Positions 2 to 16,187 are shown, counted from the first letter of the stretch. The stretch: DNA of 24,000 nt from Alteracholeplasma palmae J233 (GCF_000968055.1 NC_022538.1:755499-779498); one strand, 5' to 3'. The notes: generated from the letters alone by a model not told the origin. A program made the numbers and translations.

Positions 2-448
2 GAAATAGAAATTACAAGAACTGGAAAAGCAAATAATATTGCAGATTTAGTTAATCTATCTATATCAGGATATCAAATACAATTTGATCCAAAAATTAAA
101 ATGTATTCAGTAAATGTACCAAACAGTCTCAATGAATTAGTACTATCTGCTAATGCTAGCGAAACATCTAACATTGATGTTAGAGGATATAACCAAGGAA
201 AAGGAATTGTAACATCATCTATTAAGGACATTAAGACAGGTCAAAATGTTATTGTCATTGAAGTAACATCAGAAGATGGATTAACAAGTGAAATCTACAC
301 AATTACAGTTACAAAAGATGCCCCACAAGACTTCTTATTCCTAATCCTACTTATCGCAAGCTTACTATTATGGATTTTAACTATCCTTTATATCGCAGTT
401 AAGAGACAAAGAGAAAAAAATAAAGACAAAAACGAAGTTATATTCTAA
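2..448 (+). CDS. C-terminal end of a surface protein (cadherin-like beta-sandwich repeat plus C-terminal transmembrane anchor); 5' end lies upstream of the window
   Basis: Frame 2 is open from nt 2 with no stop before the ATG at 101 used by the ORF track, so the gene starts outside the window. 'LSISGYQIQFDPKIKMYSVNVPNSLNELVLSANA...EVTSEDGLTSEIYTITVTKD' fits the cadherin-like beta-sandwich repeat pattern of Firmicute surface proteins. It is followed by a hydrophobic helix FLFLILLIASLLLWILTILYIAV and a basic tail KRQREKNKDK. Confidence 0.6.
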   Translation, partial: EIEITRTGKANNIADLVNLSISGYQIQFDPKIKMYSVNVPNSLNELVLSANASETSNIDVRGYNQGKGIVTSSIKDIKTGQNVIVIEVTSEDGLTSEIYTITVTKDAPQDFLFLILLIASLLLWILTILYIAVKRQREKNKDKNEVIF

Positions 449-466
449 AACAAAAGGAGAAAAATA

Positions 467-1795
467 ATGATATATCTAACCTATGCAGAAAGAATGATTA
501 TAAGTCTATCAACAGTAGTTGTATTAGCTGTCCTTATCTTTATCTTCATCTTACTGTATAAAAAACAACGAATCAAAATGATAAAAACAAAAATGCTTAC
601 TATGAATGATGTCGTTAAATATAAACATTTCATGCCTTTTGTTAAGTACCAATTAAAACAAGAAGAAGATTTTTCAATTATCTTACTTCATGTGAATAAT
701 CTAGACATACTAGCAAAACAATATTCAAACTATATGGTAACTGCATACTTACGTAAACTTGCTAAAAACGTAAGTATGCACCTTACTTATGGTGCTAAAT
801 TAGCTCAAACGCCTCAAAGAGACTTATTTGCTATATACATACCAAAAGAAGAATCTTTAGATCTTCTTTTATTAGCATATAGTATGAAGGATGCTGCTAA
901 TGAAAATCTATATATTAAAAACGCAGTTGCTATTAAGAAAAATATCAGTATAGGATTTGCCATCAATGATAAAACAAATACGTATACTGAATTAATGGAT
1001 AAAGCAATGATGGCATTAGTACAATCTAAACGTCAGTTAGGTGAAGTTGTTTATTATGATGAAGATGTTGCGACCTCTATTATTGATTATAGAACAGTTG
1101 TTAGAAACCTACGCTTAACAACTACTCAATACAAATTATATGATACCTACATGCTTGCAACAGAAGAAATGAAAAACTATACACTTAAAGTAAAAGTGAA
1201 TCATTTAGAAGAAAAAGAATTCTTAAAACAAATCCCTTTAAAAGATCAAGGATGGGTTAACTTTTGGTTAATAGAAAATATTTTTAAAGAAATAACAAGT
1301 AAAAAGTTAAATGATGAATTAGAAATACCAGTGCTACTTAAGACTCTTGAATCTGAAAATATTGCAGAGGCAATTGAAAACTTATGCATAGCATACGAAA
1401 TAGACCCACAAGGAATCACTGTTAGTTTAATGGAAAGTGAAATTATAGCTTCGCAAAAAGTTGTAGAAAACATCTTAAAATTAAAAGAATTAGGTATGAC
1501 GATTGCTTATAATGTGACAAATATTTCACCTGAAATATACCACAGCATTCAAAGCTATCATGCAACCATTATCAACTTAACTAAAAAATTCATTGATGAA
1601 AATAAAGATGCTTTAGATGAACTATTATATTTTGCTAAATTCAATCATTTAGATATTTTAGTATCATCAAATGAAAACCTAGATAAAGTATATCTAGAAA
1701 ATTATCATGCTACATTATACTCAAAAGTATCTTCTAAAAATACCTTATTTATCGATAGAAAATCACAAAAAAGAGCAAAGGATGTTAAAAAATAA
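467..1795 (+). CDS. Membrane-anchored protein with degenerate GGDEF-like and EAL-like domains (probably catalytically inactive)
   Basis: SD 'aaaggag' lies 8 nt upstream of the ATG at 467. There is an N-terminal TM helix (ISLSTVVVLAVLIFIFILLY). The middle region aligns by eye to a GGDEF fold: 'FSIILLHVNNLDILAKQYSNYMVTAYLRKLA' versus the D-x-D-x-FK-x-IND-x-GH-x-GD block, 'QRDLFAIYIP' in place of GGDEF/GGEEF, and 'ISIGFA...LMDKAMMALVQSK' versus 'SIGVA...LLKRADxALYxAK'. The C-terminal half has an EAL-like layout ('VSLMESE' for E-x-TE, 'GMTIAYNVT' for G-x-x-x-A-x-DDFG) with catalytic residues replaced. Confidence 0.5.
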   Translation: MIYLTYAERMIISLSTVVVLAVLIFIFILLYKKQRIKMIKTKMLTMNDVVKYKHFMPFVKYQLKQEEDFSIILLHVNNLDILAKQYSNYMVTAYLRKLAKNVSMHLTYGAKLAQTPQRDLFAIYIPKEESLDLLLLAYSMKDAANENLYIKNAVAIKKNISIGFAINDKTNTYTELMDKAMMALVQSKRQLGEVVYYDEDVATSIIDYRTVVRNLRLTTTQYKLYDTYMLATEEMKNYTLKVKVNHLEEKEFLKQIPLKDQGWVNFWLIENIFKEITSKKLNDELEIPVLLKTLESENIAEAIENLCIAYEIDPQGITVSLMESEIIASQKVVENILKLKELGMTIAYNVTNISPEIYHSIQSYHATIINLTKKFIDENKDALDELLYFAKFNHLDILVSSNENLDKVYLENYHATLYSKVSSKNTLFIDRKSQKRAKDVKK

Positions 1796-1797
1796 TT

Positions 1798-3294
1798 ATG
1801 GAACATTTCTCACAATGGTTTATTGAGTTTTTCAAAAAACTCTCACAAGACTTATGGGCTCTTTTATCTGGATTTTTTAAAGGTATCTATAACTTATTTA
1901 TAGGAAACCCAATTAATTATTTCAAAGATTTTAACGTACAATCAAAAAACTTCACTGCAGGAGACTGGGCATTATCAATTATGTTTATTACCATCTTTTT
2001 TGTAGTAGTAGTTTTACTCTTATTAGTGATTTACCAAATCATTAAAAGATATATAAGATTTACTAAAATAGAACAAGATAAGATTGATTTATTACATAGA
2101 CAACATCAACTTGAATTAAGACTAAAAAATGGTTCTATTCAAGCAAAAAACTCATCTATTTTTAATTCAAATCCTAAATCTAAAAAAGAAGCTCAAAATA
2201 AAAAAGGCAACAGATTTGTTAAATTATCTAATATTGATGAAAAATATAAATATAGTGTTCTAGCAACGCCTATGCTAGAAGAAGAAAAATTAAGTTTACC
2301 TCAACTAGTCACTAGATTTAGAAATTATTCAGCTTATGAACATAAACTATTTTATACTGAAAAAACGATTGCTATCTTCTTAGCAGGTATGGCCACATCT
2401 AAAACAATGATTCTAGAAGGTATCTCAGGTACTGGTAAAACCTCTTTACCATATGCCTTTGGTAAATTTATTTCACACGATTCAAGCATCATTTCTGTTC
2501 AGCCATCTTGGCGTGATAGATTTGAAATGATGGGATATTTAAATGAATTTACTAAAAAATTCAATGAAACTGAATTCTTAAGATCAGTCTATGAATCACT
2601 CTATAGAACAGATATTAATCTAATCGTATTAGATGAAATGAACCTTGCCAGAGTTGAATACTATTTCGCTGACTTTTTATCATTACTTGAACTTCCAAAT
2701 CCTGATGAATGGTTATTAGATTTAATCCCTGAACAAATTGTTGGGGATCCAGTTCAACTTAAAGAAGGTAAAATTAAAATTGCTCAAAACATCTGGTTTA
2801 TAGGAACAGCTAATAAAGATGACTCAACATTTGCAATTACTGATAAAGTATATGATAGAGCAGCTTCAATTGAAATGAATGATAAAGCACAAAGATTTGA
2901 TGCCCCTGAAACTAAGGCAATGAACCTTTCTTTTGACTACTTACAAAACCTATTTACTCAAGCAGAACAAAACCATTTTATTTCACCTAGTAATTTAGAT
3001 GCATTAGTAAAATTAGACACATATATTACTGAAAAGTTTGAGATTACATTTGGTAATCGTATTATGAAACAACTTAATACCTTTGTCCCAGTCTTCATGG
3101 CTTGTGGACAAGAAGAAGTAACTGGAATTGACTATATTATTGCTCGTAAAATTATCCGTAAGTTTGAAACACTTAACTTACCATTCTTACAAAAAGAATT
3201 ACAAGACCTTCTCCTTTTATGCGATAAACTATTTGGAAAAGATAAACTCATTGAAACTAAGAAATTAGTCAATAAATTCTTAAGACAAGTCTAG
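1798..3294 (+). CDS. Membrane-anchored McrB-family (AAA_5-type) AAA+ NTPase
   Basis: The ATG is 2 nt after the upstream stop, consistent with an operon. TM helix WALSIMFITIFFVVVVLLLLVIY. Walker A 'GISGTGKTS' (nt 2419-2445). 'SVQPSWRDRFEMMGYLN' parallels McrB 'QFHQSYSYEDFIQGYRP'. Walker B 'LIVLDEMNLARVEYYFADFLSLLE' parallels McrB 'IIDEINRANLSKVFGE..MLME'. 'IGTANKDDS' parallels McrB 'IGxMNTADRS', the NxxD guanine-specificity-like motif. Confidence 0.65.
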   Translation: MEHFSQWFIEFFKKLSQDLWALLSGFFKGIYNLFIGNPINYFKDFNVQSKNFTAGDWALSIMFITIFFVVVVLLLLVIYQIIKRYIRFTKIEQDKIDLLHRQHQLELRLKNGSIQAKNSSIFNSNPKSKKEAQNKKGNRFVKLSNIDEKYKYSVLATPMLEEEKLSLPQLVTRFRNYSAYEHKLFYTEKTIAIFLAGMATSKTMILEGISGTGKTSLPYAFGKFISHDSSIISVQPSWRDRFEMMGYLNEFTKKFNETEFLRSVYESLYRTDINLIVLDEMNLARVEYYFADFLSLLELPNPDEWLLDLIPEQIVGDPVQLKEGKIKIAQNIWFIGTANKDDSTFAITDKVYDRAASIEMNDKAQRFDAPETKAMNLSFDYLQNLFTQAEQNHFISPSNLDALVKLDTYITEKFEITFGNRIMKQLNTFVPVFMACGQEEVTGIDYIIARKIIRKFETLNLPFLQKELQDLLLLCDKLFGKDKLIETKKLVNKFLRQV

Positions 3295-3302
3295 GTTAAA
3301 TT

Positions 3303-5093
3303 ATGAAACGTAAATATGATTCAGAATTATTCTTAGAAAAAGTAAGTAATTCAATTGAAGAGCATGAACTTAATTTAGATTTTCCAGAAGTTTTTTATGA
3401 TGCCTTAACAGAAGGTAGTGCCAAAAGAAAACAAAGACAACATTTTGAATATAAAAAATTTGATGATGCGTGGCTAAAAAATATAGAAGCTTATTTTCCT
3501 AGTATTGATAGAATTACTAGAAATCTTAAATCGACTTTAAGATATGAAAGTGAAATCTTACCAATTGAAAAAACTAGAAAAACTAATCCAGAATCTATTA
3601 GACACTTAACTCAAAATACAAGATATATCAAAGAAATCAACGAAGATGATGAAATCATCCCAGAAAAAGTATTAAACATATTATCTGAAATAGAATATGG
3701 AATCTATGAAAATAGATTTATTATGACACTTATTTTCAGATTAAAAGATTATTTATATAACCGTCTTAAAGTCATTAAAGAACAAATGCATGGATTTAAA
3801 GAAACAACATTTGAATTATCAAATGATTTTTCGTTTAATCATGCAGATTATGAATTAGAAGTAAATCTTAAAGCCAAAGAAACAATTGATTCTAATAAAG
3901 AAGATGACCATAATAAAAGTGTTTTAGAAAGAACAGAAAGACTCTATCAACTTGTCTCTAGATTAATTAACAGTGAATTTATGCAAGTAATGAAAAAGTA
4001 TAAAAAAGTTAAACCGCCTATTATGAAAACACAAATCATCTTAAAGAACCCAGACTTTAGAAATGCCTATATGCTTTGGTTATACTTAGATAAAACACAT
4101 ATCTTAGATTATGAACTACAAACAGAAACAAAACAAAAAAGATTTACCCAAGAATACTACAATCATCTTAACCAAAGCTTACTTGTATTATTCTCAACAA
4201 TCTTTACTTACAGTGAGTTAGGTAGTGAAATAACAGATGATAAATTATTTACTTCATTAAAAAAAGCTAAAGAAGAATTAACATATGCTAGTAATCTAGA
4301 TACTAATATCCCTATTCATGATATAGAACCACAAGAAGCAACCGAATTCTATTTAAGAAAAGCTAGAACCTTATTTAATAAACATTACCAACAAATTATT
4401 GATAATAAGAACCCTCAACAAACAAGCGTTAAACAAGTTTTAATGGAACAATATAAACTAGTTGATCAAATATACCAAGACTACTTTGAGATTAATCAAG
4501 ACAGTGATGTTTTCTCACAACTTATTATGTATAAAGATCCAGTTAAAGCTTATGATGAGGCAAAAACGAGATACGATGTAGCAAAGGCTGCTAGACAGCT
4601 TAAAGAACAAATGTATCATGAGTCCTTAGAACTTGAAAACAAATGGATTGATGAGGTCAACAAACGTCAAGAATTCGCGATTAATGAATTACAAGCTGAA
4701 TTAACTTCTGTAACAAGTAAACAAATTGAAGAAATTCAAAAGAAAACTAAAAAAGAAGAAACTCAGTATGAAAAGAAATTAAATAAAGATAGAAAAGTAG
4801 CACTTAATAAACAAAAAGTACTTACAGATATTAAGTACCGTGAAATTAAACTTAAGTATGATGCTGATTTGAAGAAGTATAAAGAAAAAGAAAAACTAAG
4901 ACTTCAAAAAGAGAAAGAAAAATTAGCGTTAAAACTTAAAAAAGAAAAAGAAAGATTAAGAGTTAAGGCAACAAAAGAAAAATTAAGAGATAAAGAAATG
5001 CTTCAAGTGAGAAAAGATAATAAATTAAAGGCATATAAAGAAAAAATAGATGCACAAAAAAAGAAAGTTTCTAAAAACAATAAACAAAACTAG
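3303..5093 (+). CDS. McrC/DUF2357-like N-terminal region fused to a long Lys/Glu-rich coiled-coil tail; no recognisable PD-(D/E)xK motif
   Basis: The gene starts 8 nt after the McrB-like gene. 'IEYGIYENRFIMTLIFRLKDYL' (nt ~3705-3719 encode YENRF) resembles the ENRF(L/I) motif of McrC/DUF2357 partners of McrB-type NTPases. 'LKNPDFRNAYMLWLYL' resembles the following conserved helix. The last ~140 aa are KEKEKL-type heptad-like low complexity. The family call is from motif memory only. Confidence 0.35.
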   Translation: MKRKYDSELFLEKVSNSIEEHELNLDFPEVFYDALTEGSAKRKQRQHFEYKKFDDAWLKNIEAYFPSIDRITRNLKSTLRYESEILPIEKTRKTNPESIRHLTQNTRYIKEINEDDEIIPEKVLNILSEIEYGIYENRFIMTLIFRLKDYLYNRLKVIKEQMHGFKETTFELSNDFSFNHADYELEVNLKAKETIDSNKEDDHNKSVLERTERLYQLVSRLINSEFMQVMKKYKKVKPPIMKTQIILKNPDFRNAYMLWLYLDKTHILDYELQTETKQKRFTQEYYNHLNQSLLVLFSTIFTYSELGSEITDDKLFTSLKKAKEELTYASNLDTNIPIHDIEPQEATEFYLRKARTLFNKHYQQIIDNKNPQQTSVKQVLMEQYKLVDQIYQDYFEINQDSDVFSQLIMYKDPVKAYDEAKTRYDVAKAARQLKEQMYHESLELENKWIDEVNKRQEFAINELQAELTSVTSKQIEEIQKKTKKEETQYEKKLNKDRKVALNKQKVLTDIKYREIKLKYDADLKKYKEKEKLRLQKEKEKLALKLKKEKERLRVKATKEKLRDKEMLQVRKDNKLKAYKEKIDAQKKKVSKNNKQN

Positions 5094-5171: not shown

Positions 5172-5198
5172 AGCAAGGATGAGGGTCCTTGCTTTTTC
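5172..5198 (+). terminator. Rho-independent terminator
   Basis: An 8-bp GC-containing stem, 'agcaagga' (5172-5179) paired with 'tccttgct' (5186-5193), has loop 'tgaggg' and is followed by a T-run (5193-5197). The stem can extend by A-T pairs on both sides. Confidence 0.65.
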
Positions 5199-5294
5199 TT
5201 TTAAACTTATCTGATAATATATTTAAGTTAAATAATAAAAGAAAATTAATCAAGCGATTTAGTTTTTAGATTAGTAAATAAACTATACAAAAAT

Positions 5295-5323
5295 TTGACA
5301 AAAGCTCTAAGAACATATATACT
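5295..5323 (+). promoter_or_regulatory. Sigma-70-type promoter of the ATPase/RloB-like operon (TTGACA - 17 nt - TATACT)
   Basis: Consensus -35 TTGACA at 5295-5300, an exact 17-nt spacer, and -10 TATACT at 5318-5323. It lies ~38 nt upstream of the SD-supported ATG at 5361. The TTG that the ORF track uses as a start is the first triplet of this -35 box. Confidence 0.6.
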
Positions 5324-5360
5324 ATTAGTGATGGATATTTTATCCAAGGAGGTATTTGCG

Positions 5361-6644
5361 ATGATTTTAAGTTTTGCTGTTAAAAACTATAAGTCAATTA
5401 AAGATTTATTAATATTAGACTTTACAACTGAAAAAAGTGAAGTTCAACCTAAGTTTGAAGCATTAGTAAAAAAAGAACAAGGACAATTAGTTACAAGGCT
5501 TAATTTTTTATATGGAAAGAATGGTTCAGGAAAAAGTAGTATAGTAGATGCATTAAAAGCATTATGTAAATTAGGAATATCAGATAACAATAAAACATCT
5601 GAGTCTGAGAAATTGATCATTAAGCCGTTTAAATTTTTAGAAGTTCTAGAAAGTAAAACCTTTTTTACATTATTGTTTGTAAACAACCAAAAAAAATATA
5701 GATACTCAGTTAGTTATGATGTTAATAAAGAAATAATTGATGATGAGCAGTTGAAATATATTGAAGATGATAAGGAAATAATCATTTTTTCAAAGTTAGA
5801 AGATCAATTTTTAAATTTGAATCAATCAGAATTAGAGAGATTAAAAACTTATAAATTAGAAAAAAACAGCATTTTAAGAACCCTCAGTAAAGAAATAGAA
5901 ATATCTAATATTAATATAAAAGCACATATAGATAATGTGTTTTCCTTTATAAACAAAATATATTTTAACTTTACTAAACTTAATTCAACGCAGAGTATTA
6001 AGCAATTAATAAATAATCCTAAAAAATTAAATGAAATTAAAAGTAAAATTAAAAAATTTGATTTAACTATTTCAGATATTAAAGTTGAAGAAAAAGATAT
6101 AAATCGTGAAGAATTTAACAGTAAATATAGTTCTTTTTTTGATGAATCTGATGAACAAATTAACAAAAGTCTTAGAAAAGTAATAGACACATTTTATGAA
6201 TTACAAAAATATAATTTAGAAATTATGCACGATCAAAATGGATTAAATTACCAAGAAGAATCAAAAGGAACGCAAAGAGCCTTAGACATTTTATTCTCAG
6301 TTTACAACATTGATTCAGGAGTTTTTATTATTGATGATTTTGAAAATGATTTACACTCTAAAAGTGCTCAAGAATTAGTTAAGTATCTCGCAAAAGAATT
6401 TATTACTCACCAATTCCTTTTTGTTACTCACGATCTAGAAATGCTAGACTTAAAAGAAGTCAAATTTAAACCACTGCACTTTTTTGCAGAAAGAGATACT
6501 AAAGATTTTTCAACAACAATAGAACGATTAACTACTTTTAAAGATTTAAGAAGCGATAGTAGAAATAGTTGGAAGAATTTTTATGAAAATCATAGACTCA
6601 CCCAATTTCCTAATATTAGCATTAATGATAAGGATGGTTTTTAA
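5361..6644 (+). CDS. ABC/AAA_21-AAA_15-type ATPase (RloA/AbiLi/AriA-like) of a two-gene defence-type module
   Basis: SD 'aaggagg' (5346-5352) lies 8 nt before the ATG at 5361. The N-terminus 'MILSFAVKNYKSIKD' is typical of this ATPase class. Walker A 'GKNGSGKSS' (nt 5514-5540). There is a long helical insertion. The C-terminal region has the signature-like 'SKGTQRAL', Walker B/D-loop 'VFIIDDFENDLH' and H-loop 'FVTHD'. Confidence 0.75.
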   Translation: MILSFAVKNYKSIKDLLILDFTTEKSEVQPKFEALVKKEQGQLVTRLNFLYGKNGSGKSSIVDALKALCKLGISDNNKTSESEKLIIKPFKFLEVLESKTFFTLLFVNNQKKYRYSVSYDVNKEIIDDEQLKYIEDDKEIIIFSKLEDQFLNLNQSELERLKTYKLEKNSILRTLSKEIEISNINIKAHIDNVFSFINKIYFNFTKLNSTQSIKQLINNPKKLNEIKSKIKKFDLTISDIKVEEKDINREEFNSKYSSFFDESDEQINKSLRKVIDTFYELQKYNLEIMHDQNGLNYQEESKGTQRALDILFSVYNIDSGVFIIDDFENDLHSKSAQELVKYLAKEFITHQFLFVTHDLEMLDLKEVKFKPLHFFAERDTKDFSTTIERLTTFKDLRSDSRNSWKNFYENHRLTQFPNISINDKDGF

Positions 6645-7453
6645 TGAATGATCTTATTAACAGTGTTGAAAAATACAAAAATAACAAGATTAGAACAACT
6701 AAAAGAATCCATGTATTTTATGAAGGCAGAGTAACTGAAAAAGATTTAATTGAATTATTTAATAAAGAGATGACTAGGCTCAATATTAAAGAAGATATTT
6801 TAAGTTTTATCGATATTAATGTTTCTAGTGAACCCAATAACGATTTAAATTATATTATTAAAACAGTTAATAAAAAAAAGAGTTATACCAATACAAGCGG
6901 TAATCAAATCTATTTTTATAAAGGAGACTATGTTTTATATTTACATGATTTTGATATCTACCATGATTACAGAGACTCAAAAAATGAAGCAAATGAAAAC
7001 AGAGTTAAAACAGCTATTAGGAATTTTGATATTAAATTTAAAGAAGTTAATCAAAATAAAAAAATAACTTTCTTAATTATTCCCAGTTTTCCATCAATAG
7101 AGTATCCTATAGCATTAGGATGTATAGCAACTGAAGAACTTAGAAGCATTAATATTTCTAACAAGCAAGATTGTATTGCTTATATTAACCAAAAAACAAA
7201 ATTTAGAATAACAGAAAAAGTAAAAGATTTCACAAATGTACTTTTAAGCAGAGCTTATTCACATGATAGAATGATATTTAACTGTAGTTTTGATAGAGTT
7301 AATAAAAAACTACTACAAAATTTAAAAGAATTTAATTCAGAACTATTAGCAAATGGTATAGATAAGTTTGTAGCAAATAGAAATAGGTCTTTTTCATATC
7401 TAGATGGAATAGTGGGAATTATTAATGATTTCTATATGAGTATTACTAAATAG
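6644..7453 (+). CDS. RloB-like / Toprim-type protein (AbiLii/OLD-Toprim-like partner of the ATPase)
   Basis: The start overlaps the upstream stop by 1 nt (TAATG), indicating translational coupling. 'RIHVFYEGRVTEKDLIELF' (nt 6710-6739) matches the RloB N-terminal 'CEGxxTExxYF' Toprim-Glu motif. 'VLYLHDFDIYHD' matches the acidic DxD block. 'FLIIPSFPSIEYPIALGC' matches RloB 'SNPcFElWlllH'. The size (269 aa) fits AbiLii/RloB proteins. Confidence 0.65.
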   Translation: MNDLINSVEKYKNNKIRTTKRIHVFYEGRVTEKDLIELFNKEMTRLNIKEDILSFIDINVSSEPNNDLNYIIKTVNKKKSYTNTSGNQIYFYKGDYVLYLHDFDIYHDYRDSKNEANENRVKTAIRNFDIKFKEVNQNKKITFLIIPSFPSIEYPIALGCIATEELRSINISNKQDCIAYINQKTKFRITEKVKDFTNVLLSRAYSHDRMIFNCSFDRVNKKLLQNLKEFNSELLANGIDKFVANRNRSFSYLDGIVGIINDFYMSITK

Positions 7454-7634: not shown

Positions 7635-8846
7635 ATGGCAATCAGACATTCTTTAAAAATGAAAAAAGTTACAATTGAATATTTAGACCAATATAACGAA
7701 TTACTAAGATATGTATTTCAAGTGACTAATAGAGATTTAACACAGACTGGTTGGCAAGAAGATGAAATACTAAAAGATAAAACACCAGCACTTGAAAAAT
7801 CAAATGTTATTGGATGGTTTGATCAAGATAAATTAGTTTCTCAAATTGCTATTTACGACTTTAATGTTAGAATTTATGGTAAAACCTTTAAAATGGCAGG
7901 AGTAACTGGAGTTGGTACTTTTCCAGAATACTCAAATAAAGGGCTTATGCAAAAACTCATCTATCAAGCATTAGTTGAAATGAGAGACAAAAAACAAACG
8001 ATCGCTTACTTATTCCCATATTCAATTCCATACTATAGAAAAAAAGGATGGGAACTCATTTCAAATAAAATAAGTTATGAAATTAGTGACTACCAATTAC
8101 CTAAATATAAGAAAGTCTTAGGAGATGTTGTTAGAGTTGATCCTGAAGGAGAAGAAATAAGACAAGCTTATGAGTCATTTTCTATGCAAACTCATGGTGC
8201 TCTTTTAAGAGATGATATCGCTTGGAGTGAGTATTACCGTTGGGATAGACCAGATATCATGGCAGCTATTTATTATAGTGAGAAAGAAAAAATAGAAGGG
8301 GCATTGATTTATTATATAGATAACGAAATCTTTTATATTAAAGAAATGTTTTTCCTAAATGAAGATGCTAGAACTGCTTTATGGAATTTTATTAGTGCAC
8401 ACTTTTCTATGATTAGCAAAGTTAAAGGTGATACTTATACAAATGAACTCTTATCTTTCTTATTAGAAGATGCTGATATTAAAGAAACCATCTCACCATA
8501 TTTTATGGCAAGAATTGTTGATGTGACAGATTTTATTGAAGCCTATCCATTTAAACAAGATACACATGATAGAAAATGGATTTTCAACTTACAAGATCCC
8601 CTTTTAGAATGGAATACAGGAACATTTGAGTTAACTATTACAAAAAAAGGTAAAGCTAAAATAACAAAAGTGAATATAAAGACAGAAGACTCAATTGACA
8701 TACAGTCACTTACTACCATGCTTTTAGGTTATAAACGACCTGAATACTTAAAACAAATTAGAAGAATTGTTGCTAGTGATGAAACAATAGATATGTTAGA
8801 AGATGCAATTGAACAACAAGAACCTTATTTTTCAGACTATTTTTAA
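7635..8846 (+). CDS. GNAT-family N-acetyltransferase, Eis-like (GNAT plus SCP2-like C-terminal region)
   Basis: SD 'aggagg' (7621-7626) lies 8 nt before the ATG. The GNAT acetyl-CoA block is 'MAGVTGVGTFPEYSNKGLMQKLIYQAL...YLFPYSIPYYRKKGWE'. The ~400-aa length and the C-terminal tail ending in 'PYFSDYF' are typical of Eis-type enzymes. Confidence 0.7.
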   Translation: MAIRHSLKMKKVTIEYLDQYNELLRYVFQVTNRDLTQTGWQEDEILKDKTPALEKSNVIGWFDQDKLVSQIAIYDFNVRIYGKTFKMAGVTGVGTFPEYSNKGLMQKLIYQALVEMRDKKQTIAYLFPYSIPYYRKKGWELISNKISYEISDYQLPKYKKVLGDVVRVDPEGEEIRQAYESFSMQTHGALLRDDIAWSEYYRWDRPDIMAAIYYSEKEKIEGALIYYIDNEIFYIKEMFFLNEDARTALWNFISAHFSMISKVKGDTYTNELLSFLLEDADIKETISPYFMARIVDVTDFIEAYPFKQDTHDRKWIFNLQDPLLEWNTGTFELTITKKGKAKITKVNIKTEDSIDIQSLTTMLLGYKRPEYLKQIRRIVASDETIDMLEDAIEQQEPYFSDYF

Positions 8847-13393: not shown

Positions 13394-14302
13394 CTATAAT
13401 TTATTTCGATAATTAAATTTTGCTAGAACTTGGCGCTTTCTTTTATTTGTAACCTCAGTATAAATTTGAGTAGTAGAAATACTAGCATGTCCTAATATTT
13501 CTTGGACTGATCTTATATCTGCACCATTGGCTAGTAAATTAGTCGCAAACGTATGTCTTAAATAATGAGGAGTAGCAGAAGGATTAATTTTAGCTAAATC
13601 TCGATATTTAGAAAAAACATCTTCAATTGCATAAATTGACATTGGATTTAAATATCTATTTATAAAAACAGATGAATGATTCACTGTAAATGTGTTTCTT
13701 AGTTTAATAAAATTTTTTAACCTATCCCAAGTAATTTGAGATGAAATATATACTAATCTTTGTTTTCTTCCTTTACCATGAATGAGTATAGTATGTTCAT
13801 GATATATAATATCTTCAAGCTTTAAAGCAACAACTTCATGTATTCTCATACCAGTAGTAATAAGTAAATCTAAAATAGCGGCATCCCTTATAGATATAAA
13901 TTGATTAAAAGAAGACTTTGTATTTTCCAAAGATGAATCAATTACTTTTAAAAGATTAGAGACTTCCTTAACTGTGAGTGTTTTAGGAAGTCTTTTCTCT
14001 TTTTTAAAACTAAATTTTAGTTTAAGTAAAGGTGTTGATTTAATTAAATTATCTTCAAATAGACAATTATAAAACATATTAATAGCTATAAGTTTTCGTT
14101 TAATAGAAGTATCTTTTAAGTTGCGTTCATTTCTAAGATGATTTAAATAACTAATAATATTTCTTTTTGTAATATCCACTTGTTCAAAATTTACAAAGTC
14201 TACTAAGTCTGAGTAGTAAGCTTTTATAGTTTTTGAAGATAAATTCTTAGAGTTTTCTATCTTTTCTAGAAAATAATTGATTTGTTTCGTTGTTTTCGTC
14301 AT
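13394..14302 (-). CDS. Tyrosine site-specific recombinase (XerC/XerD-like integrase family)
   Basis: SD 'aaggag' precedes the ATG. The N-terminal SAM-like block is 'TIKAYYSDLVDFVNF'. The catalytic region has 'TTGMRIHEVVALKLEDI' (Arg I), 'HGKGRKQR' (Lys), 'HYLRHTFAT' (HxxR) and 'LGHASISTTQIYTEV' (His/Tyr nucleophile). Confidence 0.85.
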   Translation of the reverse strand: MTKTTKQINYFLEKIENSKNLSSKTIKAYYSDLVDFVNFEQVDITKRNIISYLNHLRNERNLKDTSIKRKLIAINMFYNCLFEDNLIKSTPLLKLKFSFKKEKRLPKTLTVKEVSNLLKVIDSSLENTKSSFNQFISIRDAAILDLLITTGMRIHEVVALKLEDIIYHEHTILIHGKGRKQRLVYISSQITWDRLKNFIKLRNTFTVNHSSVFINRYLNPMSIYAIEDVFSKYRDLAKINPSATPHYLRHTFATNLLANGADIRSVQEILGHASISTTQIYTEVTNKRKRQVLAKFNYRNKL

Positions 14303-14420: not shown

Positions 14421-16187
14421 ATGAAAAAATATAAACTGGCAAATAGAACTAAAACATCTTTAAATATATTCTTTATGTTATTGTTTTCTATTGGAATCAC
14501 CTTCTCATATTTTTATAGTAATGAAAGTAGTAATTATGTAAAAATAATTGCTGTAATTTGTGAAATATCGGCAATGGCATATTTTGTTATTCCAACTATT
14601 ATTGGAAATATATATTATGATGAAAAATATATAAAAATATCGACTGATTTATTTACTGATAGAAAAGAGACTATTAAGTTTGTAATTGATGAATTATATA
14701 CTATATTAAAGAATAAAAATTTAACAAAAATCATTTCTATAAAAACAAAAGATCAAAGTGGTGTCGGAAAAACAGAACTATTAAGAAAAATTAGAGATAT
14801 ATTTTATAACAAAGAACTTGCTAAAAAATATCTATCTGATGACTTTTACAAGTGGACGTATATAAAGAAAAAGATAGGTGATGCACATCTTGTTGATTAT
14901 AATCCTGATACATTTAATTCAATACAATATAATTATCCAAAAACAATATTTAAAATAAATCTTTTACTAGTGGATAATATGCCAGTTTTTTACGGTGATA
15001 TTAATAAAGATAATATAATTGTTTATTGTAAAATTACATCCGAAGAAGAATCTGTTTTATCTAATATGACAGTTACTGATATTAAGACACTCTACTCTAA
15101 AAAATTCTACAGAGATTTATCTGACGAGGAGGCTAGTATTGTTTTTGAAATAACTGGTGGAAATGTAAAAAATATTAATAAAATTTTACATGATGAATCA
15201 ACATTTACTTCATTTATTAAAAACCACAGAACAATTGCTGAAATTGAGTTTACTATGCAAATTGGAGATTATAAAAAAGCAAAAGAAATGTTAGATAATT
15301 TAAGTAGTAACCCAGCATTTATTAGACAATTAAGATTAAATGTAGATTTGGAGTTTGAGTATAAATTTTTAGAGGCTGATTTAACCCACTTGCAAAATAA
15401 TTATGTCGAATCAGTTGAGATGTTAGAGGCCCTTTTATCAAATATAATAATAGTAAATGATGATTTAAAAGCCAACAAAATAATAGAAAAAATATCCCAT
15501 ATAAAAAAACATATGGGAAAATTTAAGGAGGCACTAAAGTACATTTCTTATTTAGATAAAAATGATTTTACTTTAAGATCTCTGAGTTTATTATTACTTT
15601 CTTACACACAATATGATAATGAAGAGTATTTAAAGGAGTTTCTAAATAGTATAGATTATATAGAAATCAATAAGATTACATCAAATCATTTTAATGATCC
15701 TTACAAAACTTATAAAGGAGTAGCATTGATTTACAATAATCTAAAAATGAATAAACATGAAGAGATTAGTTTTGAAAATGCACACTCGGTTATAAATAGC
15801 ATTATTCAAATATATGAAAAACATAATAGCAGATTTATCACTAATTGCTATTTTATTAAGGCAGAGTTTTACAGACACCAAAAAAGATATGATTATGCGA
15901 TAATCTACTACTCAAAATGTTTAGATATATATATAATGAATAATGACTTTGATATATACTCTCTTGTTTACTGTATGATCAGGTATATTGAGATAACACA
16001 ACATAAAGATTTTAAACTAATCAATAAGATAGACTTAGAAAAAATAAAGACCATATGTACTGATAAAAAAATGTCATACAATTTAAAAATAGCGCATCAT
16101 TTATCAGAAATTATTGATGGTGTGAATTCTGAATCACTGGTTGCAAGTAAACTTTTTTTTGATAAAAATATTTTCCTTATTCCATAA
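14421..16187 (+). CDS. Membrane-anchored P-loop NTPase (NB-ARC/STAND-like) with a C-terminal TPR-like helical-repeat region
   Basis: Two N-terminal TM helices (LNIFFMLLFSIGITFSYFY; IIAVICEISAMAYFVIPTIIG). The P-loop is 'KDQSGVGKTELLRKI' (nt 14757-14780; GVGKT as in NB-ARC proteins, but the first Walker-A Gly is replaced by Asp). A Walker-B-like 'INLLLVDNM' follows. 'FEITGGNVKNINKIL' sits in the position of the GxP/'GLPLAL' helix. The C-terminal ~300 aa have repeated Y/L/A-rich helical pairs typical of TPRs ('YDYAIIYYSKCLDIY'). Confidence 0.45.
   Translation: MKKYKLANRTKTSLNIFFMLLFSIGITFSYFYSNESSNYVKIIAVICEISAMAYFVIPTIIGNIYYDEKYIKISTDLFTDRKETIKFVIDELYTILKNKNLTKIISIKTKDQSGVGKTELLRKIRDIFYNKELAKKYLSDDFYKWTYIKKKIGDAHLVDYNPDTFNSIQYNYPKTIFKINLLLVDNMPVFYGDINKDNIIVYCKITSEEESVLSNMTVTDIKTLYSKKFYRDLSDEEASIVFEITGGNVKNINKILHDESTFTSFIKNHRTIAEIEFTMQIGDYKKAKEMLDNLSSNPAFIRQLRLNVDLEFEYKFLEADLTHLQNNYVESVEMLEALLSNIIIVNDDLKANKIIEKISHIKKHMGKFKEALKYISYLDKNDFTLRSLSLLLLSYTQYDNEEYLKEFLNSIDYIEINKITSNHFNDPYKTYKGVALIYNNLKMNKHEEISFENAHSVINSIIQIYEKHNSRFITNCYFIKAEFYRHQKRYDYAIIYYSKCLDIYIMNNDFDIYSLVYCMIRYIEITQHKDFKLINKIDLEKIKTICTDKKMSYNLKIAHHLSEIIDGVNSESLVASKLFFDKNIFLIP

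Follow-up and report, generated by a model that had tools for sequence, protein, structure and literature searches.

What does a McrB-type motor do when its partner carries no visible nuclease and the pair lies behind a surface protein gene? This question is raised by a 24,000-nucleotide (nt) stretch of DNA from Alteracholeplasma palmae J233 (GCF_000968055.1, NC_022538.1:755499-779498), referred to here as the window, across which G+C content is ~27%. At its 5' end, four open reading frames (ORFs), all on the plus strand, are packed head to tail; the first is the end of a gene entering from upstream, and the gaps between the four measure 18, 2, and 8 nt. The complete products of 442, 498, and 596 amino acids (aa) are labeled GE, B, and C, and the incoming gene is called the giant gene. 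An earlier model-made reading of the bare sequence (the original prediction) had listed these ORFs and gaps together with motifs and membrane helices, and all were found in place.

2..448, plus strand: 3' end of the giant cadherin-like gene (Pfam PF12733, membrane helix, tail)
449..466, plus strand: 18-nt spacer with the ribosome-binding site AAGGAG at 454-459 (direct sequence reading)
467..1795, plus strand: GE ORF, 442 aa (read from sequence)
1798..3294, plus strand: B ORF, 498 aa (read from sequence)
3303..5093, plus strand: C ORF, 596 aa (read from sequence)

Overall, we conclude that the feature is real and conserved, that it is neither an artifact nor an ordinary McrBC system, and that these genes form the distal portion of an operon for four membrane-associated proteins, three of them with a membrane anchor. 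B, an AAA+ NTPase of the McrB type, is anchored in the membrane and belongs to the NxD/CoCoNuT-related branch, and C is a nuclease-less McrC/DUF2357-type partner with a long basic helix. We consider it moderately probable, taking the envelope and adhesin reading as a whole, that the module acts in surface-protein deployment at the membrane and not on foreign DNA.

The McrB-type NTPase and its McrC/DUF2357-type partner

B had been assigned to the McrB family of AAA+ proteins, and database searches bear this out. McrB was the sole family matched when B was searched against PDB sequences (6hz4, E = 1.4e-3, residues 183-373) and the best, if weak, match in NCBIfam, while a profile of 35 B homologues aligned with E. 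coli McrB in hhalign at a probability of 93.6% (E = 2.2e-7, 193 columns). The PADLOC candidate-defense model PDC-M26A also matched B, at E = 1.9e-39. The motifs GTGKT (residues 211-215), QPSWRDRFEMMGY (235-247), LDEMNLARVEYYFADFLSLLE (278-298), and GTANKDD (336-342) are all present. Positions and structural segments of B are as follows.

1801-1944, plus strand: N-terminal amphipathic helix, residues 2-49 (AlphaFold)
1966-2037, plus strand: membrane helix (AlphaFold; hydrophobic segment at residues 60-78)
2038-2142, plus strand: helical stalk continuing the membrane helix (AlphaFold)
2143-2217, plus strand: disordered linker, residues 115-136 (AlphaFold)
2218-3291, plus strand: AAA+ module, residues 141-498 (AlphaFold)
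2419..2442, plus strand: Walker A motif GISGTGKT, residues 208-215 (invariant in 35 homologues)
2629..2643, plus strand: Walker B motif LDEMN, residues 278-282 (D279 and E280 invariant in 35 homologues)
2812..2823, plus strand: McrB signature N339-K-D341-D342 of the NxD(D/E) type (N339, D341, and D342 invariant in 35 homologues)

A survey of McrBC systems described a branch with GTPases that bear NxD, usually followed by D or E, and not NxxD; this branch holds the CoCoNuTs plus another large clade, named CoCoPALM, whose GTPases carry a fused FtsB-like membrane and coiled-coil domain and which further features a McrC (DUF2357) homologue with a coiled coil and an association with signal-peptidase-family (pilus assembly) genes (Bell et al., eLife 2024, PMC11090510). 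The Walker B motif LDEMN of B aligns with IDEIN of E. coli McrB. Its signature can be aligned in two ways: against a plasmid CoCoNuT-type GTPase (37% identity, E = 7e-59), GTANKDD pairs without a gap with GTANHDE, and it is also alignable to GLMNTAD of E. coli McrB, in which case NKDD reads as NxxD.

In the AlphaFold model of B (pLDDT 79.8), residues 1-140 form two long helices, one of them membrane spanning, and a disordered linker. The second helix runs without a break from residue 54 to 115 and contains the only strongly hydrophobic segment of the protein. No DNA-binding family matched B in Pfam or NCBIfam, in agreement with the proposal that a transmembrane helix takes the place of a DNA-binding N-domain. 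Because a K/R-rich segment follows the membrane helix, the positive-inside rule predicts that the NTPase module is cytoplasmic. McrB belongs to the AAA+ group of RavA/MoxR, dynein, MCM, BchI, and NorQ. The top Foldseek matches of the B model were RavA, dynein, MCM, BchI, and NorQ; McrB itself lay outside the top 50, probably owing to the long helices in the query.

The evidence for C comes through its relatives, of which 53 full-length homologues, 31 to 58% identical to C, were compared. DUF2357 (PF09823) is matched above the Pfam curated cutoff by 13 of the 53 (best E = 2.2e-11), and homologues at 34 to 41% identity score 33 to 44 bits for this family, with the cutoff at 23.3. By BLASTP, C also aligns to an annotated DUF2357 protein from a Deinococcus plasmid (E = 0.003), with the blocks YxIYENR and NxPxFR...LWL in register; the gene for that protein adjoins a CoCoNuT-type GTPase gene. 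C contains both YENRFI (residues 135-140) and KEKEKL, and its conserved regions map as follows.

3426..3884, plus strand: DUF2357-equivalent region, residues ~42-194 (Pfam matches of homologues mapped onto C)
3705-3719, plus strand: YENRF, invariant (invariant alignment columns)
3792-3887, plus strand: long β-hairpin, residues 164-195, with helices on either side (AlphaFold)
4014..4091, plus strand: second conserved block PPIMKTQIILKNPDFRNAYMLWLYLD, residues 238-263 (invariant columns)
4539..5087, plus strand: continuous C-terminal helix of 183 residues, 413-595 (AlphaFold; composition and heptad analysis)

Within the second block, which aligns to ITNILGNDPHYRRVARLWL of the plasmid DUF2357 protein, P239, K242, T243, I246, N249, W259, and L262 are invariant. 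By transitive homology, the predicted membership of C in the McrC N-terminal (DUF2357) family holds, as had been proposed from the YENRFI region. The original prediction had also found no PD-(D/E)xK signature in C, and the family agrees with it: none of the 53 homologues matched a nuclease family, the invariant columns of the alignment contain no D...(D/E)xK pattern, and past residue 225 the model is helical except for one strand. The AlphaFold model of C (pLDDT 81.2) consists of a helical bundle with the β-hairpin, then helices and a single strand after residue 225, with a low-confidence linker at residues 330-342. The C-terminal segment, which had been described as a KEKEKL-type coiled coil, does form one long helix (43% E/K/R, net charge +22); on the model, it could be either a coiled coil or a single α-helix. 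When the C family profile was compared with the PDB, only apolipoproteins and ATP synthase b were returned, and these matches, which came through the charged helix, were rejected as a compositional artifact.

Gene order, upstream partners, and descent of the module

Conservation of the four-gene order had been proposed as a check, and the order giant-GE-B-C was found in at least 12 further loci (L001-L004, L028, L082, L083, L084, L085, L087, L088, L089). These include Haploplasma axanthum (L082, with L083 being a second contig that has the same B protein and arrangement), a complete Mycoplasmatota genome (L001), and Izemoplasmatales metagenome-assembled genomes; overall, the carriers are Acholeplasmatales- and Izemoplasmatales-like genomes and metagenome contigs. 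Across the module loci, identity to the window B protein falls as low as 54%. The genes 3' of C are housekeeping genes that differ among the loci. Of all these loci, L087 is the one most closely related to that of the window.

The 442-aa protein directly upstream of B had been predicted to be a transmembrane protein with degenerate GGDEF and EAL folds. Its features are listed here.

497-553, plus strand: membrane helix, residues 11-29, then YKKQRIKMIKTK (hydrophobicity)
650-1036, plus strand: GGDEF-like fold (Pfam, weak)
1259-1600, plus strand: EAL-like fold (Pfam, weak)

A 10-residue N terminus precedes the one membrane helix of GE. The Pfam scores are 8e-6 for GGDEF and 3.2e-5 for EAL, the latter under the curated cutoff. 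Upon alignment with paralogues that match EAL at 1e-57 to 1e-63, every signature of GE proved to be replaced: GGDEF by QRDLF, EAL by TLK, DDFGTG by YNVTN, EGVE by SSNE, and QGxxFxxP by TLYSK, with the loop N lost; ExxE and KxD are replaced as well. The 475-aa and 860-aa paralogues of the larger clusters described below largely keep the signatures, with E(S/A)L, N, KxD, and QGYxFSKP retained (Pfam EAL 8.8e-57, 5.5e-63). Because all GGDEF and EAL signatures are replaced, GE is predicted to be catalytically dead, able neither to make nor to hydrolyze cyclic di-GMP (c-di-GMP). The roles of the EAL motifs in c-di-GMP contact are known, and on that basis GE also appears to be without the residues by which EAL-type receptors hold the nucleotide. 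The suggestion that GE is a receptor or scaffold therefore survives in its second half: the contact and metal residues of a c-di-GMP receptor are replaced, and a scaffold is the better reading.

Of the genes in the module, GE evolves fastest. Its identity to the orthologues in L087, L082, and L001 is 39, 35, and 22%, with corresponding values of 72, 68, and 58% for B and 59, 55, and 41% for C. The decay of GE seems to be progressive, since deeper-branching orthologues retain a recognizable EAL domain.

Of the giant protein, the window holds the last 148 residues: a Cadherin-like domain (PF12733, E = 1.7e-9), a hydrophobic membrane helix (residues 111-129, nt 332-388), and a basic cytoplasmic tail of 19 aa, the last three of which are VIF. 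This is the membrane-anchored end of a cadherin-like surface protein, 18 nt ahead of GE, that had been anticipated. A homologue search with the 148-aa fragment gave no return; a search of representative proteins identified the full-length product, P0245, of 3,384 aa, whose C terminus is identical to the fragment. Orthologues of the giant protein measure 3,283 to 3,841 aa and contain many Cadherin-like repeats, and the closest of them has an ordinary Sec-type signal peptide. For the giant protein, these features predict a type I membrane topology and a huge ectodomain. In nine loci, the membrane helix (LLIxSLLxWIxT) and the basic tail are conserved, and the ectodomains are ~25% identical; conservation of the helix and tail would fit a specific partner located in or at the membrane, which makes it suggestive and not proof.

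P0245 as called starts MDLLAISAEEEDFG... without a signal peptide, unlike its closest orthologue, and the start was probably miscalled or the gene extends further upstream. A SipW-type signal peptide on the adhesin was ruled out, as the closest orthologue is of the Sec type and has no AWF motif. In L087, a second giant gene (>2,046 aa; L087 1-6141) ends 5 nt before the cadherin-like gene, and its product ends in two dockerin-like Ca-binding repeats, GDTNGDSRITAADTN... and DLNQDGRITAADTN..., a hint of a docked multiprotein surface complex.

To place the module among its relatives, species-representative genomes were scanned for B relatives; at least 600 stretches were returned, 595 of them encoding a B relative, and 80 loci were taken for analysis. 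In 75 of the 80, B belongs to a larger arrangement of ~13 genes (full-type cluster), for which L009 is typical, as follows.

L009 gene 1: ~860-aa membrane protein with an intact EAL (phosphodiesterase) signature
L009 gene 2: ~475-aa membrane GGDEF-EAL protein
L009 position 3: a ~250-aa protein followed by two pilin-like proteins of ~320 aa
L009 position 4: ~240-aa SipW/archaeal-type signal peptidase I
L009 positions 5 and 6: B, then C
L009 position 7: pilin-like protein
L009 position 8: second signal peptidase
L009 position 9: two more pilin-like proteins
L009 position 10: secreted giant of 1,700 to 2,400 aa without a C-terminal anchor

The signal peptidases of these clusters match SipW in NCBIfam (3.2e-20) as well as TIGR02228 (6.6e-18), and in the pilin-like proteins, an N-terminal hydrophobic helix is followed by a T(F/Y)AWF(T/S) motif. 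Together with L001 and the window, 82 B loci were classed by script, 6 as window-type and 76 as full-type; L001 was classed as full-type because its GE matches the adhesin query more closely than it matches the window GE, but it is window-type by gene order. A SipW-like gene is present in 71 of the 76 script-classed full-type loci, immediately upstream of B in 62, and EAL-family genes occur in 22 of the 34 loci having at least 7 kilobases of upstream sequence.

In a neighbor-joining tree of B, which has large clades of genomes labeled Acholeplasmatales or Izemoplasmatales, all window-type loci fall into one clade, which is nested among full-type loci and has an Acholeplasma group as its sister. 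The A. palmae genome also encodes a full-type B paralogue, P0093, 54% identical to B. On a contig with the exact P0093 protein, the gene is preceded by EAL and GGDEF-EAL genes and four small genes, and a signal peptidase is apparently present at the paralogous locus of A. palmae. Because the window-type B proteins are nested in the tree and A. palmae retains a full-type paralogue, we conclude that the window module is a duplicated, reduced derivative in which GE, B, and C remain, the peptidases and pilins are gone, and an anchored adhesin has become linked.

Further observations concern the full-type clusters in their own right. The ~320-aa pilin-like proteins (L009 7160-9171; ~40 loci) combine an N-terminal TFAWFT with an invariant C-terminal RIWIEGWDA (W293, G296, W297, D298) and matched nothing in Pfam, NCBIfam, or PDB; they seem to represent a family of SipW-associated surface proteins that has not been described before. 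At the C terminus of both peptidases flanking B and C (L009 9247-9978 and 14191-14853; L006 9286-9969 and 13345-13935), a second membrane helix leads into a charged cytoplasmic tail with helical propensity, e.g., KHKLEEKYATDKEIAKRDLEVEKERMRAEILAELK; such tails could pair with the long helices present in B and C. In Acholeplasma granularum (L006 14666-16969), the terminal large protein of the full-type cluster has the AWFT signal motif of the pilin-like proteins and, at its C terminus, a module for chitin or carbohydrate binding (CBM_5_12, 1.5e-17), which suggests that the fibers or their tip may bind polysaccharide. In one full-type subclade (L010, L029, L034, L037, L038, L042, L043, L044, L048), a ~250-aa pilin-like gene directly follows B and no McrC-like gene was detected; in these loci, the GTPase may function independently of C, or a C gene may lie at another site.

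Downstream of C, the sequence contains one further element of interest.

5172..5202, plus strand: terminator-like GC-rich hairpin AGCAAGGA-TGAGGG-TCCTTGCT, then the T-run TTTTTCTTTT (sequence reading)

The hairpin starts 79 nt past the C stop codon; the scan also lists the same inverted repeat on the minus strand. A promoter-like site at 5295-5323, with 11/12 matches the best of the region, is followed by a ribosome-binding site and ATG 5361 of the next gene. Because the hairpin and T-run lie 3' of C, ahead of this promoter-like site, the operon probably ends with the C gene, its end marked by the hairpin. Taken as a whole, the promoter scan returned 51 sites compared with 48.8 expected from shuffles, which is no enrichment; since the scan performed no better than on shuffled sequence, the hairpin alone was weighed as evidence for the operon end.

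Directly downstream is an AbiL-type two-gene unit (5295-7453, plus strand; likely true start at ATG 5361). Its first gene encodes an AbiLi-like AAA_21 ATPase (PADLOC AbiLi 4.7e-42; Pfam AAA_21 8.8e-22), and the second, of 269 aa, overlaps the first and has a weak RloB-like match (E = 0.018). From these matches, the pair looks like an AbiL-type defense pair with its own promoter-like site. An acetyltransferase gene at 7635-8846 encodes the three domains Acetyltransf_9, Acetyltransf_17, and SCP2_2, an order that we take to be an Eis-type architecture. A tyrosine recombinase gene (13394-14302, minus strand; Phage_integrase 3.9e-39) faces an ORF of 588 aa (14421-16187, plus strand) for which Pfam gave no match at E ≤ 1e-5. 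Housekeeping functions are encoded in the remainder of the window: an amino-acid permease, FakA/DegV, SHMT, UvrC, and ABC transporters.

Proposed function and its alternatives

In the McrBC paradigm, a hexameric GTPase ring is stimulated to hydrolyze GTP by the DUF2357 helix bundle and stalk of McrC (PMC11090510). By extension, B would form a hexameric ring on the cytoplasmic face of the membrane, held there by its membrane helix and stalk, and the DUF2357 hairpin and helix bundle of C would engage this ring and stimulate nucleotide hydrolysis as McrC does on McrB. Because the module has neither a DNA-binding domain nor a nuclease, its output would be mechanical or organizational and not nucleolytic; likewise, as there is no nucleic-acid module, the energy of the B-C pair would be spent on protein or membrane partners. 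The co-inherited proteins are the candidate partners because the pair is always inherited with them. The output could be relayed through the membrane and the long helices to the co-encoded surface protein, the presumed adhesin target, and could control its insertion, anchoring, clustering, or turnover. Any specific one of these steps (insertion, anchoring, clustering, turnover or removal) is far less assured than the envelope reading as a whole. GE would then be a c-di-GMP-blind structural remnant of the receptor/phosphodiesterase that couples the parent system to c-di-GMP. In the parent cluster, the targets would be the peptidase-processed pilin-like subunits and the secreted giant, under c-di-GMP control.

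Several points weigh against this reading. What appears to link B, C, GE, and the adhesin is operon co-inheritance only, and the whole class, including the window module, is known from sequence. C itself had no match in Pfam (E ≤ 0.1), NCBIfam, PADLOC, PHROGs, or PDB sequence searches. Its family showed no similarity to E. coli McrC in hhalign, and its whole model, which the 183-residue helix dominates, gave no Foldseek match at E ≤ 0.001; because these last two comparisons were negative, the McrC link of C is to the DUF2357 family and not to E. coli McrC. The family profile of B showed no similarity to E. coli FtsB in hhalign (probability 0.4%), and no Pfam FtsB/DivIC match was found at E ≤ 0.1. 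The pilin-like proteins of the parent clusters had no Pfam, NCBIfam, or PDB-profile match to TasA/camelysin, and no signal peptidase was found in the four-gene module, the other scanned ORFs of the window, or the related window-type loci. The nearest sequence relatives of B (CoCoNuT-type, PDC-M26A) are defense or putative defense systems, and the AbiL-like pair lies immediately downstream. To our knowledge, all characterized McrBC systems are likewise defense or putative defense systems.

Such ancestry is the starting point of the strongest alternative, in which the module is a noncanonical antiphage or antiplasmid system of the CoCoNuT/McrBC lineage that senses infection, e.g., at a surface protein serving as phage receptor, and responds by disrupting the membrane or by way of an effector whose gene lies at another site. 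The B core does have its closest relatives among plasmid CoCoNuT-like GTPases, and a related ATPase core is carried by one viral contig and one phage record; yet searches of plasmids and phages gave no full-length relative, and the B tree forms large clades of genomes labeled Acholeplasmatales or Izemoplasmatales, with a full-type paralogue in the same genome. The strong PDC-M26A match would fit a defense role, but no nuclease, HEPN, or other effector occurs in the module, be it that of the window or those of the related loci examined. Although an AbiLi-like ATPase gene and a weakly RloB-like gene follow C in the window, they have their own promoter-like site and are separated from C by the hairpin; at other loci, the module travels with surface protein genes, and its 3' neighbors are housekeeping and not defense genes. 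We regard a defense role as unlikely. Where the original prediction left envelope, defense, and signaling roles open, synteny and inheritance favor the envelope.

A decaying duplicate of a full CoCoPALM-like cluster, with peptidases and pilins lost and little or no function left, is improbable. Such decay would account for the loss of all signature residues from the fast-evolving GE, for the missing peptidase and pilin genes, and for a complete paralogous cluster in the same genome. It sits poorly with four intact ORFs in at least 12 divergent loci, at B identities down to 54 to 58%, with every NTPase motif of B invariant and the YENRF and PIMKTQ blocks of C retained; gene order and tight spacing are also kept, a degree of conservation unexpected for pseudogenes. 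Lastly, a cell-division or membrane-remodeling device, in which an FtsB-like helix and coiled coil bring the GTPase to the site where a wall-less cell divides, would suit both the FtsB-like N-terminal domain of CoCoPALM GTPases (PMC11090510) and the membrane helix of the B model that runs on into a long stalk, but it is very improbable given the negative FtsB and DivIC comparisons and the absence of division genes from the neighborhoods examined.

Returning to surface-protein deployment as the preferred reading, a broader version can be put forward tentatively, as a possibility that we rate below the envelope reading itself. A McrB ring and its McrC activator may have been exapted as the cytoplasmic motor or organizer of c-di-GMP-wired surface-protein deployment unrelated to nucleic acids, a new class of envelope machine that in its full form would drive or gate SipW-dependent pilus-like fibers and in its reduced form would serve one giant membrane-anchored adhesin of wall-less bacteria. 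If true, the McrBC motor would have found a second use in constructing or controlling the cell surface, beyond nucleic-acid-directed defense, the only role in which McrBC-type GTPases are known, and the B proteins of the full-type clusters would be the first candidate NTPase for SipW-dependent fiber systems. We know of no NTPase assigned to the characterized SipW/TasA-type systems. The module also points to how wall-less Acholeplasmatales may display giant adhesins. Its reduced four-gene form would constitute a minimal system of one substrate candidate, a motor, an activator, and a scaffold, easier to test than the ~13-gene cluster.

Comparison with known systems

With classical McrBC of E. 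coli K-12, the window module shares an AAA+ GTPase that has Walker A and B motifs and the Asn/Asp signature, with a partner gene immediately 3'. It differs in that B has a membrane helix and stalk and no DNA-binding N-domain, and in that C is without a PD-(D/E)xK nuclease and without detectable similarity to E. coli McrC. With neither a DNA-binding domain nor a nuclease, the pair is not a classical restriction system, as had been stated from the outset.

CoCoNuTs (CnuB/CnuC, the helicase CnuH, and the HEPN effector CnuE) are closer in sequence. The ATPase core of B is 35 to 38% identical (E ~ 1e-51) to plasmid GTPases of ~790 to 800 aa from Deinococcus, Rhodoferax, Polaromonas, and cyanobacteria, its nearest relatives outside the membrane-anchored forms, and C shares with the Deinococcus DUF2357 protein the blocks YxIYENR and NxPxFR...LWL. 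On the Deinococcus and Rhodoferax plasmids, the B-like gene has genes for a large AAA-domain protein and a ~490-aa protein on its 5' side and a DUF2357 gene on its 3' side; read from gene order alone, these four-gene sets are CoCoNuT-like. In contrast, the window module has no helicase, HEPN, or other nuclease, its B carries a membrane anchor where CoCoNuT GTPases have a cytoplasmic coiled coil or CSD, and it adjoins surface proteins, is chromosomal, and is syntenic within one bacterial order.

Degenerate GGDEF-EAL proteins that serve as c-di-GMP receptors control adhesins or pili in the LapD/LapG/LapA and FimX systems, and FimX acts on the hexameric PilB. The likeness here is that a membrane- or motor-associated degenerate GGDEF-EAL protein occurs with a giant adhesin, as in Lap, or with an assembly ATPase, as in FimX-PilB; the parent cluster, which joins EAL proteins, an NTPase, and pilin-like genes, resembles the latter. 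The resemblance is an analogy only, with homology not extending beyond the domains. Unlike the Lap system, GE has no periplasmic or HAMP module and no EAL c-di-GMP residues, and there is no LapG-like protease. A. laidlawii encodes 14 GGDEF/EAL proteins, unlike other mollicutes (PMC2408644). Compared with TasA/SipW fibers, the parent cluster has SipW-type peptidases together with pilin-like proteins that match no TasA-family profile.

The original prediction had called the module an uncharacterized machine. This needs qualification, as its class has already been named: CoCoPALM received three sentences only in the survey, which deferred it to a later paper (PMC11090510). We found no later paper on CoCoPALM, none on PDC-M26, and none tying McrB-like proteins to c-di-GMP or SipW. 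In the searchable text of the survey, the terms GGDEF, Acholeplasma, and Mollicutes are absent, and neither the c-di-GMP association nor the reduced, adhesin-linked form is mentioned (PMC11090510).

The full-type clusters fit the CoCoPALM description. The window module shares with it the McrB-like GTPase with NxD(D/E), a placement that is our own, made outside the tree of Bell et al., and that must allow for NKDD also being readable as NxxD. It shares in architecture the membrane helix (residues 60-78) inside a continuous helix (54-115), and it has in common a nuclease-less McrC/DUF2357 partner bearing a long helix or coiled coil, as well as a B protein nested among clusters bearing SipW-type peptidases and pilin-like genes. 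It differs in having no signal peptidase or pilin-like gene, with the giant cadherin-like and degenerate GGDEF-EAL genes instead. Because three of the four features fit and the signal peptidase is missing, we conclude that the window module is a reduced, adhesin-linked variant of CoCoPALM and not a typical member; its link to c-di-GMP and the adhesin-only variant seem not to have been noted before.

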